NCBI RefSeq assembly: GCF_024700885.2
Contig: NZ_CP117016.1
From: Escherichia coli
GTDB lineage: Bacteria; Pseudomonadota; Gammaproteobacteria; Enterobacterales; Enterobacteriaceae
Strand: one strand, 5' to 3'
Length of the DNA stretch: 64,000 bases
Below, one piece after another: positions 1,726-6,783 of the stretch. Every line of letters begins with the position of its first letter. Position 1 is the first letter of the stretch. The notes beneath the pieces are model-generated. The model did no database searches. It was not told where the DNA came from and saw nothing but the letters and a program-made list of their open reading frames with translations. The translations under genes and the position numbers were made by a program.

Positions 1726-3663
1726 GTGACTCTTAAACGGGCCTGTTCCCTGCTGACGGTGAAATCCTTCAGTGAGGATGAACGAGTGATCACCGGGATT
1801 GCGTCAACGCCTTCTCCGGATCGGGATGGTGACATCCTGGAGCCGGAGGGCGCGGAGTTTGGCAGTGCGATCCCGTTTCTCTGGCAGCATGACCATTCCC
1901 GCCCGGTGGGGCAGTGTACGGTGCGCCGGGTCAGCGAAGGGCTGGAAATCACGGCAACACTGGTGAAGCCCGTACCGGATATGCCGTCGCAACTGGCTGC
2001 CCGGCTGGATGAGGTCTGGGCGGCCATTAAGACCGGGCTGGTCAGGGGGCTGTCCGTGGGCTTCCGTCCCCATGAATACACCTTTCTGGACGGAGGCGGA
2101 CTGCATTTTCTGCGCTGGGAACTGATGGAGGTGTCTGCCGTCACCGTGCCCGCGAATGCGGAATGCACCATCCGGACCATTAAATCTTACGACCGCCCGT
2201 TTTCTGCCGCGTCCGGCAACCGGAAACCGGTGGTGAAAATCGCATCTTCTGCCGGCGCTGCGGCACAGTCAACAACCGTTTTTCATAAGGAAAAGACCAT
2301 AATGAATATTGGCGAACAGATTAAAAGTTTTGAAAACAAGCGTGCAGCGCTGGCAGCCTCCCTTGAGGAGGTCATGACCAAAGCCGCAGAGGAAGGGCGC
2401 ACGCTGGATGTGGAGGAGGAAGAGCATTACGACAACACCGCAGCGGAAATCCGTCAGGTGGATGCGCACCTGAAGCGCCTGCGTGAACTGGAAGCCGGTA
2501 AGGCCGCCACGGCGCAGCCGGTGAAACAGGCCGGTAACGGGAATGTGGCCGCGGTGGCTTCTGCGCCGGTGATCCGTGTGGAGCAGAAACTGGATAAGGG
2601 GATTGGCTTCGCCCGCTTTGCCAAATCGCTGGCTGCGGCTAAAGGCGTCCGATCTGAAGCCCTGGAAGTGGCCCGTCGTCAGTATCCGGATGACAGTCGT
2701 CTGCATCATGTCCTGAAATCGGCAGTGGGCGCGGGGACCACCACGGATCCGCAGTGGGCAGGCAGCCTGTCTGAATATCAGGAATACGCACAGGACTTTA
2801 TTGATTACCTGCGTCCGCAGACCATTATCGGGCGATTTGGTCAGGGCGGGATCCCTGCACTTCGTCAGGTGCCGTTCAATATCCGTGTGCACGCCCAGGT
2901 GTCCGGCGGTGCTGCCGGCTGGGTGGGTGAGGGTAAGGCAAAACCCCTGACGAAGTTTGATTTTGAATCCATCACCTTCAGTCATGCGAAGGTGTCGGCC
3001 ATTGCGGTACTGACGGAAGAATTGATCCGTTTTTCCAGTCCGGCTGCTGATGCACTGGTCCGTAATGCGCTGGCGGAAGCGGTGGTGGCGCGTCTGGATA
3101 CAGACTTTGTGGACCCGAAAAAAGCCGCAGTGGCAGATGTCTCCCCGGCGTCCATCACCCATGATGTGAAGGGCACGGCATCAACCGGTAACCCGGATGC
3201 GGATGCAGAGGCTGCGTTTGGACAGTTTGTGGCAGCAAACCTGCAGCCCACCGGTGCGGTCTGGCTGATGTCCAGCACCAATGCCCTGGCACTGTCCATG
3301 CGTAAAAATGCGCTGGGTCAGAAGGAATACCCGGACATGACCCTGCTGGGTGGCTCCTTCCAGGGGCTGCCGGTGATTGTCTCCCAGTACGTGGGTGACC
3401 AGCTGGTGCTGGTGAATGCCCCGGATATTTATCTGGCGGATGACGGCGGCGTGGCAGTGGATATGTCCCGCGAGGCATCACTGGAAATGCAGTCTGAGCC
3501 GGGCGGCGACAGTACCACGCCGTCCCCGGTGGAGCTGGTTTCCATGTTCCAGACAGGCAGCGTGGCCATCCGTGCGGAGCGCTGGATCAACTGGCGTCGT
3601 CGCCGTACCGCGGCGGTGGCGGTGATCACCGGAGTGAACTACGGCAGTGCGTCCGGCGGCTGA
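1726..3663 (+). CDS. Prohead protease - scaffold - major capsid protein fusion (HK97 family)
   Basis: N-terminal part resembles HK97-type prohead proteases (DRDGDILEP, LWQHD, SVGF, VSAVTVPANAE); after an internal MNIGEQIK and a charged coiled-coil stretch, the C-terminal part resembles HK97-fold capsid proteins. GTG start 6 nt after aggagg. Confidence 0.85.
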   Translation: MTLKRACSLLTVKSFSEDERVITGIASTPSPDRDGDILEPEGAEFGSAIPFLWQHDHSRPVGQCTVRRVSEGLEITATLVKPVPDMPSQLAARLDEVWAAIKTGLVRGLSVGFRPHEYTFLDGGGLHFLRWELMEVSAVTVPANAECTIRTIKSYDRPFSAASGNRKPVVKIASSAGAAAQSTTVFHKEKTIMNIGEQIKSFENKRAALAASLEEVMTKAAEEGRTLDVEEEEHYDNTAAEIRQVDAHLKRLRELEAGKAATAQPVKQAGNGNVAAVASAPVIRVEQKLDKGIGFARFAKSLAAAKGVRSEALEVARRQYPDDSRLHHVLKSAVGAGTTTDPQWAGSLSEYQEYAQDFIDYLRPQTIIGRFGQGGIPALRQVPFNIRVHAQVSGGAAGWVGEGKAKPLTKFDFESITFSHAKVSAIAVLTEELIRFSSPAADALVRNALAEAVVARLDTDFVDPKKAAVADVSPASITHDVKGTASTGNPDADAEAAFGQFVAANLQPTGAVWLMSSTNALALSMRKNALGQKEYPDMTLLGGSFQGLPVIVSQYVGDQLVLVNAPDIYLADDGGVAVDMSREASLEMQSEPGGDSTTPSPVELVSMFQTGSVAIRAERWINWRRRRTAAVAVITGVNYGSASGG

Positions 3664-3707: not shown

Positions 3708-3929
3708 ATGGCAAAGATCCGATATCTGCAGGGCACGCATGATGCCCGGGCCGGGGATATCCGTGATGTGGCACAGCCGTGTGCGGAGGTGCTGGTTCGC
3801 CTGGGAAAGGCGGAGTACATCACGGTGCGACGTCCGGCAGGTCAGAAAAAGAAACGTGATGCGGAGCATGGCGAATGTGGAACCTTTTACGGCGAACCCG
3901 AAAAAACCAGAAATCAGGACGTGACGTAA
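3708..3929 (+). CDS. Hypothetical small protein (73 aa) between capsid and portal; overlaps the annotated portal start
   Basis: ORF only; follows the cgggaggc-gtgc-gcctcccg hairpin after the capsid gene; no recognisable family; weak RBS. Confidence 0.2.
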   Translation: MAKIRYLQGTHDARAGDIRDVAQPCAEVLVRLGKAEYITVRRPAGQKKKRDAEHGECGTFYGEPEKTRNQDVT

Positions 3930-6460
3930 GAGAGGCGGGCTGGACCAGCCTGTTTCAGGCGGTGGCTGAGCCCTTTTCCGGCGCCTGGCAGCAGGGCGTG
4001 AAAGCCGATCCTGAAGCCGTCCTCTCCTTTCATGCGGTGTTTGCATGTATTTCGCTGATATCCCAGGATATCGCCAAAATGCGGCTGCGTCTTATGCAGA
4101 CGGATGCGCATGGGATACGCAGGGAAACGCGCCGGGGGGATATTGCCCGCCTCTGTCGTCGTCCCAACGCCCAGCAGAACCGCATCCAGTTTTTTGAACT
4201 GTGGCTGAACGCCAAACTGCGTCACGGCAATACGGTGGTGCTGAAAATCCGTAATGCCCGGGGGCAGATCAAAGAACTGCGTATTCTGGACTGGAGCCGG
4301 GTTGAACCTCTGGTGGCGGATGACGGCGAGGTGTTCTACCGCATCACGCCGGACCGGAACTGCGGGATCACGGAGGCGGTGACGGTGCCTGCCCGGGAAG
4401 TGATCCACGACCGGTTTAACTGTTTTTTTCATCCGCTTATAGGATTGCCGCCGGTGTATGCCGCCGGGCTGGCGGCCACGCAGGGGCATCATATTCAGGA
4501 AAATTCGACGTCTTTTTTCAGAAATGGTGGCAGGCCGTCCGGGGTGATTGAGATCCCCGGCAGTATTACGGAAGAAAATGCGAAAAAACTGAAGAGCAAC
4601 TGGGACAGCGGGTATACAGGCGAAAATGCGGGGAAAACGGCCATTCTGAGCAACGGGGCAAAATACAACCCCACGACGTTTTCACCTGTGGATGCGCAGA
4701 CGGTGGAACAACTGAAGATGACCGCTGAAATTGTCTGTTCGGTGTTCCGTGTCCCGGCCTACAAGATTGGCGTGGGACAACCGCCTTCCAGTGACAACGT
4801 GGAGGCGCTGGAGCAGCAGTATTATTCCCAGTGCCTGCAGACGCTGATTGAGTCCATTGAACTGTTACTGGATGAGGCGCTGGAAACGGGGGAAAACGAG
4901 AGTACAGAATTTGATGTCACCACGCTGCTGAGAATGGACAGTGAGCGGCGCATGAAAACGCTGGGGGATGCGGTGAAAAATACGCTTCTCACGCCCAATG
5001 AGGCCCGTAAACGGGAGAACCTGCCGCCCCTGGCCGGCGGTGATGCACTGTATCTTCAGCAGCAGAACTACAGTCTGGAGGCGCTGTCCCGTCGTGATGC
5101 CCGTGAGGATCCGTTCTCGTCTGCCGGGAAAACAGTTTCATCACAGCTGCCTGACGGCGCATCTGACGGTAATAAGGCAATCAGTGAAACAGAGCATGAT
5201 GCGGTGAAAGCGATGTTCAGGGGGGATACTGAGAAAATGACGGAACGGGAACTGTCCATTATTCGTGCACTGGGAGAAGAATTCTCCACAGTGCTGGCGG
5301 ATTTACAGCGCACATTTGAGGGGAAGATGGCCTCGCAGGCACAAGCGTTTGAAGAGAAACTGACTTCCCTGTCGGCGGTATTACAGAAGCATGTGACGGT
5401 GGATGAGGTGCGTCCGGTTCTGCAGGCGATGGTGGATGACGCTGTGGGGGCCATTCCGGTACCGCGTGATGGTCGTGATTATGATCCGGATGTACTGCAG
5501 CAGGCGGTGAATGATGCGGTCGCAAATATTCCGCAGCCGGCGGACGGTAAAAGTCTCACCCCGGATGATGTGCGTCCGATGCTTGAACAGATGGTGAAGG
5601 AGGCTGTAAGCCATATCCCTGTTCCGCGTGATGGTCGTGACTACGATCCGGAAGTACTGCAGAAGGCGGTGAATGATGCGGTCGCAAATATTCCGCAGCC
5701 GGCGGACGGTAAAAGTCTCACCCCGGATGATGTGCGTCCGATGCTTGAACAGATGGTGAAGGAGGCTGTAAGCCATATCCCTGTTCCGCGCGACGGTCGT
5801 GACTATGATCCCGATGTTCTGCAGAAGGCGGTGAATGATGCGGTCGCAAATATTCCGCAGCCGGCAGACGGTAAAAGTCTCACCCCGGATGATGTGCGTC
5901 CGATGCTTGAACAGATGGTGAAGGAGGCGGTAAGCCATATTCATGTTCCGCGTGATGGTCGTGACTACGATCCGGATGTTCTGCAGAAGGCGGTTCTGGA
6001 TGCGGTGAGTGCCCTGCCGGCTCCGCAGGACGGGCGTGATGCCACGGCTCTGGAAATACTCCCCGCCATTGACGATCAAAAATCCTTTCCCCGGGGCACG
6101 TATGCCACACACCAGGGCGGACTCTGGCGGGCGTATGAAAAAACGCACGGGATGCGGGGATGGGAATGCCTGGTTGACGGGGTGGCGGATATTGACGTCA
6201 GCATGACGGGTGAGCGGTTGTTCTCTGTGGTGGTCCGGCAGAGCAGTGGCCAGCGTACGGAAAAAACATTTTCCCTGCCGGTGATGCTCTACCGCGGTGT
6301 GTTCAGAGCCGGTGAAACCTACCACCCCGGCGATACGGTGACGTGGGGGGGCTCGCTGTGGCACTGCAACAGTATGACCGAAGATAAACCCGGAGAAGCT
6401 CATTCATCAGCCTGGACCCTGGCTGCAAAACGTGGGCGGGATGCAGGAGGCGGAAAATGA
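3875..6460 (+). CDS. Portal protein (HK97 family) with about 465-aa C-terminal extension containing tandem repeats
   Basis: Residues about 40-400 align to HK97-type portal motifs (FHAVFACISLISQDIA, RRPNAQQNRIQFFELWLNAKLRHGNTVVL, FFRNGGRPSGVIEIPGSITEENAKKLKSNWDSGYTGENAGKTAILSNGAKYNP, NEARKRENLPPLAGGDALYLQ); the ORF continues uninterrupted for another about 465 codons. Start codon uncertain. Confidence 0.8.
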   Translation: MWNLLRRTRKNQKSGRDVREAGWTSLFQAVAEPFSGAWQQGVKADPEAVLSFHAVFACISLISQDIAKMRLRLMQTDAHGIRRETRRGDIARLCRRPNAQQNRIQFFELWLNAKLRHGNTVVLKIRNARGQIKELRILDWSRVEPLVADDGEVFYRITPDRNCGITEAVTVPAREVIHDRFNCFFHPLIGLPPVYAAGLAATQGHHIQENSTSFFRNGGRPSGVIEIPGSITEENAKKLKSNWDSGYTGENAGKTAILSNGAKYNPTTFSPVDAQTVEQLKMTAEIVCSVFRVPAYKIGVGQPPSSDNVEALEQQYYSQCLQTLIESIELLLDEALETGENESTEFDVTTLLRMDSERRMKTLGDAVKNTLLTPNEARKRENLPPLAGGDALYLQQQNYSLEALSRRDAREDPFSSAGKTVSSQLPDGASDGNKAISETEHDAVKAMFRGDTEKMTERELSIIRALGEEFSTVLADLQRTFEGKMASQAQAFEEKLTSLSAVLQKHVTVDEVRPVLQAMVDDAVGAIPVPRDGRDYDPDVLQQAVNDAVANIPQPADGKSLTPDDVRPMLEQMVKEAVSHIPVPRDGRDYDPEVLQKAVNDAVANIPQPADGKSLTPDDVRPMLEQMVKEAVSHIPVPRDGRDYDPDVLQKAVNDAVANIPQPADGKSLTPDDVRPMLEQMVKEAVSHIHVPRDGRDYDPDVLQKAVLDAVSALPAPQDGRDATALEILPAIDDQKSFPRGTYATHQGGLWRAYEKTHGMRGWECLVDGVADIDVSMTGERLFSVVVRQSSGQRTEKTFSLPVMLYRGVFRAGETYHPGDTVTWGGSLWHCNSMTEDKPGEAHSSAWTLAAKRGRDAGGGK
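5399..6046 (+). repeat. In-frame tandem repeat array, period 162 bp (54 aa), about 4 copies, inside the portal gene 3' extension
   Basis: Unit ccggatgatgtgcgtccgatgcttgaacagatggtgaaggaggc... recurs at 5561, 5723 and 5885 with near-identity; a diverged copy precedes and a partial copy follows. Confidence 0.9.
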
Positions 6461-6783
6461 CGGCATTACTGACACTGGAAGAGATCAAGGCACATCTGCG
6501 TGTCGACCATGACGCGGATGATGACATGCTGATGGACAAGGTTTGTCAGGCTACCGCCGTGCTGCTGGCCTACATTCAGGGCAGCCGGGATAAAGTGATC
6601 CGTGAGGACGGTGAACTGATCCCGGGCGAGGCATTAACCCGGATGAAGGGGGCTGCCATGCGACTGACCGGGATGCTGTACCGGAATCCGGATCTTGCGG
6701 AGCGGGAAGAACTGCTTCAGGGGGAGCTGCCGTTTTCTGTTTCCGTGCTGATTTACGATTTGCGTTGTCCGACGGTGTTATGA
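6457..6783 (+). CDS. Head-tail connector protein (gp6-like)
   Basis: 108-aa ORF, ATG overlapping the portal stop (ATGA); N-terminus TLEEIKAHLRVDHDADDDML typical of gp6-like connector proteins. Confidence 0.65.
   Translation: MTALLTLEEIKAHLRVDHDADDDMLMDKVCQATAVLLAYIQGSRDKVIREDGELIPGEALTRMKGAAMRLTGMLYRNPDLAEREELLQGELPFSVSVLIYDLRCPTVL

Follow-up and report, generated by a model that had tools for sequence, protein, structure and literature searches.

Why does a phage portal gene in Escherichia coli DNA run on for 861 codons when the portal itself seems complete by about residue 420? The gene lies at 3875..6460 (+ strand) in a 64,000-nucleotide (nt) stretch of contig NZ_CP117016.1 (assembly GCF_024700885.2), which we refer to as the window. 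A preliminary description had reported an uninterrupted open reading frame (ORF) here and, indeed, the frame contains 861 codons plus a stop and is stop-free throughout. It was described as an HK97-family portal bearing a C-terminal extension made of tandem repeats and a terminal domain. We found, instead, that the 861-codon "portal" is a read-through fusion of two adjacent, overlapping genes, brought about by one additional G, and not a portal with an acquired tail. The supposed extension is a gene of its own, here called gene X, which stands apart from the portal gene in roughly half of the copies in E. coli and in almost every other relative, and which the preliminary description had not seen.

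Two genes joined by one G

The portal gene proper occupies 3875..5236 (+) and encodes amino acids (aa) 1–454. The alignments indicate that the first ~420 residues of the ORF constitute a complete portal, because profiles and solved structures both span them. The Pfam family Phage_portal (PF04860) matches aa 54–382 (E = 1e-80, model positions 2–321 of 321), TIGR01537 (portal_HK97) matches aa 45–388 with 349 bits compared with a cut-off of 112 (model positions 2–343 of 343), and solved HK97-type portals of 424–431 aa align end to end with aa 43–420. The HK97 portal (8cez) aligns over aa 45–401. The portal fold is thus placed at aa ~43–420, and a tail of aa ~401–454 does not align to solved portals. 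Two lines of evidence assign aa 1–454 to the HK97 family, namely a profile score above the curated cut-off and a setting in a head/packaging module that holds terminase, prohead protease, major capsid protein and head–tail adaptors. The earlier placing of the portal's end near residue 400 agrees with these alignments. The separate portal gene of related prophages has 454 codons (ECs_1974 in prophage Sp10 of strain Sakai and ORF58 of phage BP-4795), and the fused form is also common.

Gene X occupies 5237..6460 (+) and has 407 codons, with its own ATG at 5237–5239. When its terminal domain was searched against 1.84 billion representative proteins, the X family comprised 5702 clusters at 50% identity. 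A portal domain was absent from 148 of the best 150 representative matches; these stand alone, begin with a Met of their own and are 315 aa long in the median. The stand-alone protein P0002 aligned to positions 455–858 of the fused profile, and the window protein has a Met at residue 455 (MTERELSIIRALGEEF). Furthermore, the N-termini of P0002, P0005 and P0008, which are of the type MNxRE(I/L)..IK..GE, match MTERELSIIRALGEE in the window. The relatives share a common plan that consists of an N-terminal helix, a variable region of helix plus (I/L)PxPxDG(K/R)D repeats, and the same C-terminal domain. The number of repeats among them ranges from 1 to more than 20, and in some relatives the repeats are collagen-like.

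The portal gene adjoins X or is fused to it in 69 of the 74 distinct loci; a second search for related loci with a divergent seed gave mostly the same E. coli contigs. The stop of the portal gene and the start of X overlap as ATGA in one enterobacterial genome and in Salmonella phage FSL SP-016. In two metagenome contigs, the spacing is an 8-nt overlap in one and a short gap in the other. Among the few exceptions to the pairing is a copy of X without the N-terminal helix (locus L256, 3983–4948), which lies behind glycosyltransferase-like genes and has no portal gene beside it.

The join itself could be traced to a poly-G tract at 5220..5225 (+), which contains six Gs (G6) in the window. When junctions were aligned from E. 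coli-type loci that share more than 90% identity with the window, there was a single difference between flanks that were otherwise near-identical: the fused junction reads ttcaGGGGGGatactgagaaaATGAcg (G6), whereas the split junction reads ttcaGGGGGatactgagaaaATGAcg (G5). In the G5 form, the portal ends with ...AMFRGILRK-TGA, and this TGA (5238–5240, +) overlaps the X start as ATGA. In the G6 form, the portal frame reads ...FRGDTEK-MTERE... and runs into X; the stretch of the fused protein across the join is AMFRGDTEKMTER. All of the inspected fused loci were G6 and all of the inspected split loci were G5. The preliminary description had suggested looking for an internal start or a frameshift between the two parts, and both were found: the ATG of X at 5237 and, 12 nt upstream of it, the tract whose length sets fusion or separation.

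How common are the two states, and which came first? An exact-pattern scan of IMG/VR returned 71 G5 and 41 G6 contigs, and no other tract length occurred among these 112 contigs with this junction. The locus DNA was found in 1245 of 5426 complete E. coli genomes. In these complete genomes, junctions with a GAG flank were G5 in 708 places and G6 in 1337, and those with a GCG flank were G5 in 482 places and G6 in 49, which gives ~1190 split versus ~1386 fused junctions over both flanks. Three haplotypes, defined by ±250 nt of flank, each occurred in both states. A tree of these flanking sequences, built by neighbour joining, implied at least nine state changes, a count that is approximate because prophages recombine, and showed G5 in all deep branches. 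The relatives outside the E. coli group read AGAGGA or CGAGGA at the tract site and have split genes. Because these outside relatives are split and G5 is basal in the tree, G5 and gene separation are the ancestral state. The ancestral-type portal end is ...KAM(L/F)RG(I/L)L.K-TGA followed by the overlapping ATG of X (ATGA), and in the E. coli lineage the Arg-Gly codons just before the junction became a run of five Gs. The tract length has since changed repeatedly, in both directions.

Could the sixth G be a sequencing or assembly artefact, as the preliminary description had allowed? We rejected this explanation because both states are present in Sanger-era genomes and inside single assemblies, and the identical 861-aa protein occurs on 306 contigs. 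In the Sanger-sequenced Sakai genome, prophage Sp10 is split (ECs_1974, 454 aa, and ECs_1975, 407 aa) and Sp6 is G6, and strain E2863 carries G5 and G6 in different prophages of one assembly. Phage BP-4795 and the Shiga toxin (Stx) 2 phage 1717 are split; phages 2851, YYZ-2008 and Stx2a_WGPS6 are fused, as is E. coli NCTC86, in which the DNA is 100% identical to the window gene. An odd junction was seen in phage vB_EcoS_phi330 (L199, PV189401.1): besides G6, 2 nt are inserted upstream of it. In the annotation, X is additionally broken close to the end domain, so that portal and X are shown as three ORFs; these oddities may reflect sequencing errors in that record.

Alternatively, the tract might be a regulated recoding site, at which each allele yields split and fused products in a set ratio, as in lambda G/GT, or it might mediate high-frequency phase variation of the virion. 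We consider either case highly improbable. Judging from the codons at the junction, if the Gly tRNA slipped by −1 on the GGG that precedes the rare ATA codon in G5, the product would be the exact G6 protein, and slippage by +1 in G6 would bring back the short portal. On the other hand, no slippery heptamer or homopolymer is conserved at the junction outside the E. coli group, where AGAGGA or CGAGGA stands instead. Moreover, the sole strong RNA hairpin begins ~36 nt past the tract, too distant to stimulate frameshifting, for which 5–9 nt would be expected. Phase variation would agree with a tract that changed length both ways several times, differs among close relatives and alters the gene product, but the IMG/VR contigs held only G5 and G6 and no longer runs. 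Tracts of 5–6 Gs are shorter than classical contingency tracts.

A conserved programmed frameshift as a feature of the whole family was rejected, since the junctions of the relatives have no slippery site in common and the hairpin is too far downstream. This hairpin is stable and lies at ~5261–5302, 22 nt inside X; a 111-nt region around it has a folding energy of −35.4 kcal/mol (z = −3.45). In one enterobacterial relative (L002, 7990–8004), the portal gene ends with T_TTA_AAA-TGA, a canonical −1 slippery heptamer that leads into the ATG of X. This is probably a chance occurrence, as the other relatives are without it.

Helix, repeats and end domain of X

Structure prediction, which the preliminary description had proposed for the repeat unit and the terminal domain, was performed with AlphaFold2 using 140 relatives. 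The N-terminal helix of X, of ~50 residues, is encoded at 5237..5392 (+; aa 455–506) and was predicted with confidence, the model placing it at residues 3–52 with a predicted local distance difference test (pLDDT) score of ~90. It is followed by four 162-bp units at 5381..6028 (+; aa 503–718). Each 54-aa unit comprises two half-units (25 + 29 aa) of the type helix plus IPxPxDG(K/R), giving eight half-units. The model showed eight short helices with Pro-rich linkers in this region, at low confidence as a monomer.

The repeats had been described as four and near-identical. The number holds, but near-identity was overstated: in DNA, identity is 95.7% between units 2 and 3 and 84–86% between unit 4 and either of them, and unit 1 is only 65–77% identical to the others. 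The program TRF reported a 162-bp period with 3.3 copies, 95% matches and no indels at 5462–5994. The variation in copy number that the preliminary description had predicted was readily found. From its own ATG, X measures 245, 299, 353, 405/407, 461, 515 or 569 aa among E. coli prophages, corresponding to 1–7 units, and this range is present in both the G5 and the G6 classes.

The C-terminal beta domain of X (6029..6457, +; aa ~719–861) contains two motifs resembling those of carbohydrate-binding modules (CBM) of families 5/12, FPRGTYATHQGGLWRA and YHPGDTVTWGGSLWHC. The model predicts an all-beta end domain with pLDDT 95–98, and the W/G/C/Y columns are invariant or nearly so across the 140 relatives. 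These predictions indicate that the terminal domain is real and folded, in line with the distinct domain with conserved Trp, Cys and Gly noted earlier. A model of the short relative P0016 gave the same picture, including the N-terminal helix, with a mean pLDDT of 87.9. The predicted fold of the end domain is similar to that of solved CBM5/12 domains, and the weaker structural neighbours of X include phage tail-fibre proteins and collagen-repeat phage proteins.

At the level of profiles, the match to PF02839 (CBM_5_12) is partial, covering just 23 residues (E = 0.012 for the window protein and 0.00084 for P0016). A profile search of the Protein Data Bank (PDB) returned CBM-containing chains at E values of 0.001–0.1; no solved homologue of X was found by sequence or profile search of the PDB. 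There is no model for X in NCBIfam, and no catalytic family was detected in X with Pfam, NCBIfam or PHROGs, which gave just the CBM5/12-like binding modules. One further family, PF28083, is listed among the precomputed Pfam hits for the fused protein and was absent from the Pfam scans of the fused protein and of P0016.

A second poly-G tract lies at 6345..6351 (+), in frame and inside the last CBM-like motif, and contains seven Gs (G7) in the window. In 8 of 142 loci it is shortened to six, which cuts X short; the carriers include Sakai Sp6 (ECs_1544, 833 aa), L196 and L276. Two matches of 2585 nt (H45 and H47) combine G6 at the first tract with a shortened second tract.

Location of X and fate of the fused protein

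Where might X reside in the virion, and could the fused protein function? Our best inference makes X a portal-vertex protein that is present in few copies and probably resides in the head interior. The internal or ejected domain imagined in the preliminary description is thus a plausible idea. We judge the overall explanation, in which G6 fuses two genes and X has a role at the portal vertex, to be moderately probable. In the two-gene form, X would be made by termination–reinitiation at the ATGA in an amount tied to that of the low-copy portal, and such coupling would make it a low-copy component of the vertex. The N-terminal helix would anchor X at or near the C-terminal crown or tail of the portal, facing the head interior. 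In the G6 form, the ribosomes would read on and make a covalent 861-aa portal–X protein. Anchoring at the portal C-terminus would account for the tolerance of permanent tethering and its retention in several lineages. The crown of the portal points into the head (PMC10359639), and fusions to that end have arisen more than once and been maintained; X would therefore be expected inside the head at the crown. In this it would resemble SPP1 gp7 and other MuF proteins, which share its gene slot and bind the portal (PMC5576092), as well as the effector domains on portals or MuF proteins for which injection has been proposed (PMC5512222). The chain of 54-residue units could then serve as a flexible spacer of adjustable length, and the CBM5/12-like end domain would bind a glycan. 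Our guess is that this is a cell-wall glycan, encountered as the head contents exit through the tail. It is the weakest step of the explanation; a tip of this conserved, glycan-binding-like kind would suit a ligand that is universal, for example peptidoglycan.

Portal–X fusions with different junction sequences exist in other lineages. In a Pantoea clade represented by genomes and metagenomes, the genes are fused throughout at 61–69% identity, with products of 1143–1249 aa and ~25 repeats. Pandoraea-type portals bear collagen repeats followed by the X end domain. In other bacteria, portals of the same clade carry zeta-toxin/AAA_33, HExxH-peptidase-like or other domains at the same C-terminal position, and toxin- or peptidase-like cargo there speaks for a location of X inside the head. 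The portals with such varied additions were P0300/P0301, P0303, P0299 and P0297/P0298/P0302/P0304. Their additions included zeta-toxin plus AAA_33 kinase-like domains, a HELGH metallopeptidase-like region, a further domain and collagen repeats, the X end domain coming after the collagen repeats in P0297 and P0304, the two such proteins whose sequences were read. A motif resembling HPRxxGGxW, followed by a Gly-rich linker, is shared by P0299 and P0300.

The anatomy of X also suggests the main rival explanation, which we think unlikely. X would be an external neck whisker or head fibre that aids adsorption by binding a surface glycan. G6 would trap X inside the head, a loss of function for X that leaves the portal usable, and the frameshifts at the second tract would be further losses in a dispensable accessory. 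A long N-terminal helix, a variable repeat shaft and a CBM5/12-like knob are indeed fibre-like, and there are collagen-like GxDGxDG stretches in relatives of X. The structural neighbours include the tail fibres of phages 7-7-1, Milano and Pa193 as well as collagen-repeat phage proteins, and X has weak PHROG matches to tail-fibre families. In addition, the number of repeats changes rapidly (1–7 units at more than 90% identity), and the second frameshift hot spot cuts X short in some copies. However, at 40–60% identity across thousands of clusters from very different hosts, the end domain is conserved to an unusual degree for a receptor-binding tip. The X gene lies in the head module, coupled to the portal, and not in a tail-fibre module. 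Furthermore, the Pantoea clade has kept the fusion to the inward-facing portal C-terminus over its whole range of divergence, and X shows no relaxed constraint in G6 alleles.

A further alternative is that G6 is a frameshift lesion in decaying prophages. Its product would be non-functional or an assembly poison, and the allele would persist solely thanks to the numerous lambdoid prophages of E. coli that are defective or complement each other. Among inactivating mutations, homopolymer indels are the most frequent, and the second tract in the same gene is also mutated; Sp6 has both G6 and a truncated X. Up to six copies of a given junction type occur per genome. Sakai O157 prophages of this head type have been judged portal- or head-defective, yet were packaged with help from others (PMC2669165). 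In the same work, Sp10 was scored intact for all morphogenesis functions, portal included, and was transferred to K-12 (Asadulghani et al., PMC2669165). We nevertheless consider the lesion quite improbable, as several observations speak against it. G6 is as frequent as G5 in complete genomes, and comparable fusions are conserved in other lineages. X was intact in 24 of 30 G6 loci compared with 46 of 52 G5 loci, and it appears to be under purifying selection in G6. The ratio of nonsynonymous to synonymous polymorphism (pN/pS), computed with motif anchoring of the alignments, was 0.19–0.32 for the N-terminal helix and end domain of X in both allele groups. G6 is also present in records deposited under phage names (2851, YYZ-2008 and Stx2a_WGPS6); phage 2851 was reportedly infectious in the hands of Strauch and colleagues in 2008. 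We regard the G6 state as a viable variant and not a dead gene, one that arose repeatedly by slippage in a short homopolymer.

Several points weigh against a viable fusion with X at the vertex inside the head. The helix, the variable and in some cases collagen-like repeats and the CBM-like knob, together with the tail-fibre neighbours, are what would be expected of an external fibre. A tolerated fusion is no proof of native proximity, as portals may accept foreign C-terminal additions. With the Shine–Dalgarno-like run of Gs at 11–12 nt from the ATG, little free X may be made in the G6 form. The similar pN/pS values may only reflect recombination, or divergence older than the recent G5-to-G6 changes. 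Because defective prophages are common in E. coli, the abundance of G6 does not prove viability, and helper prophages could complement. Finally, our searches found no proteomic, structural or genetic study of X or of the 861-aa product.

A bolder extension of the portal-vertex explanation can be imagined, which we regard as a long shot. X might represent a large unrecognised class of portal-tethered head proteins that are held at the portal crown and, upon infection, threaded out through the tail, their conserved CBM5/12-like tip gripping a cell-wall glycan and the 54-residue units setting the reach. The G5/G6 tract, together with the G7 tract, would then switch between a releasable form and a tethered (or tip-less) form. 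If true, the G-tract switch would change how the phage delivers its DNA.

The head module, its annotation and known systems

The fused gene belongs to a lambdoid head module. Upstream of it are the large terminase gene (1–1662), a gene fusing prohead protease and major capsid protein (1726–3663) and a small ORF (3708–3929). Downstream, a gene for a head–tail adaptor (Ad1; 6457..6783, +) overlaps the X stop by 4 nt, and genes for a head-closure protein, a gp10-like protein, the tail terminator, the major tail protein and the tape measure follow in this order. The prohead protease (Peptidase_S78) and the capsid protein form one gene of 645 codons, a fusion that is also kept in relatives, and its position ahead of the portal is unusual for HK97-like heads. 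The small ORF overlaps the portal start by 55 nt; it is annotated in FSL SP-016 and L005 and not in L002. DNA at least 90% identical was found in 93 phage records, including phage 2851 (genus Pankowvirus) and YYZ-2008 and many Stx1a, Stx2a and Stx2c prophages.

The preliminary description had considered an unannotated fusion. The gene is a fusion, but it has not gone unannotated. PHROG 2271, named "portal protein", has a profile length of 859 and is matched by the window protein over its full length (1–859 of 859). RefSeq/PGAP calls the G6 form "phage portal protein" (WP_032167421.1, NCTC86), and phage 2851 gp59 bears the same name. A protein of ~860 aa is thus the ordinary annotated portal of this group. 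Many database entries for the fused protein are "partial", with ~600–650 aa, and come from short contigs of ~2–5 kb, which is consistent with short-read assemblies breaking in the 162-bp repeats.

The two-gene form has fared less evenly. One intact two-gene locus that we checked (G5 + G7; L275, NZ_CP031910.1, 1272886–1275470) is marked by RefSeq/PGAP as a single "frameshifted" portal pseudogene, and other annotators label both genes "portal protein". The stand-alone X family, PHROG 1289, also goes by "portal protein", a name presumably taken over from the fused form. Should the pseudogene flag be general, it would bias judgements of prophage integrity, Stx phages included, in thousands of E. 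coli genomes. We found no discussion of gene X or of the portal–X fusion in our literature searches on portal extensions, frameshifts and phage 2851. The gene in the window is, then, the ordinary, already annotated form in its phage group, and our analysis provides a useful correction and a handle on a large family rather than a system of a new kind. Nature provides fused and split pairs that are one base apart, a ready-made experiment on the location of X and on the cargo capacity of the portal.

How does X compare with known systems? It is a very large family, for which we found no functional study, in the slot next to the portal that MuF/gp7 proteins occupy. Like MuF/SPP1 gp7 proteins (PF04233, PF06152), X is encoded directly downstream of the portal in the packaging/head module, would be a low-copy, portal-associated protein and is modular, an N-terminal part for anchoring being combined with a C-terminal part that varies. 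SPP1 gp7 is a portal-binding protein present in 1–2 copies per capsid (Jamet et al. 2017, PMC5576092). In contrast to MuF proteins, the N-terminal part of X is predicted to be a single long helix, and its C-terminal part ends in a conserved glycan-binding-like domain and not in a variable toxin. We rejected membership of X in the MuF family, as there was no MuF domain in the Pfam scans of the fused protein and P0016, nor in NCBIfam.

A second comparison is with effectors fused to portals or MuF proteins, which have been proposed to be packaged and injected, as part of the "polyvalent protein" theme (Iyer et al. 2017, PMC5512222). There, too, the extra domain is C-terminal to the portal and would hence lie within the capsid. 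X differs in that a whole neighbouring gene of the structural module is joined by a 1-nt change and remains two genes in about half of the copies, and in that its domain is of a binding type, not an enzyme; the fused protein is not known to have a processing site.

The C-terminal helical barrel of the P22 portal (PMC4992974, PMC5290284) offers a further likeness, since it is a long, mostly helical continuation that projects into the head. Unlike X, the barrel is an integral part of one gene, is without repeats or a beta end domain and has no sequence relation to X. Finally, phage fibres with CBM5/12-like tips, such as the tail fibres of Agrobacterium phages 7-7-1 and Milano and of Pseudomonas phage Pa193, and the collagen-repeat phage proteins in BFVD, resemble X in that an N-terminal anchor is followed by a shaft of repeats, which varies in length, and by a small beta knob.

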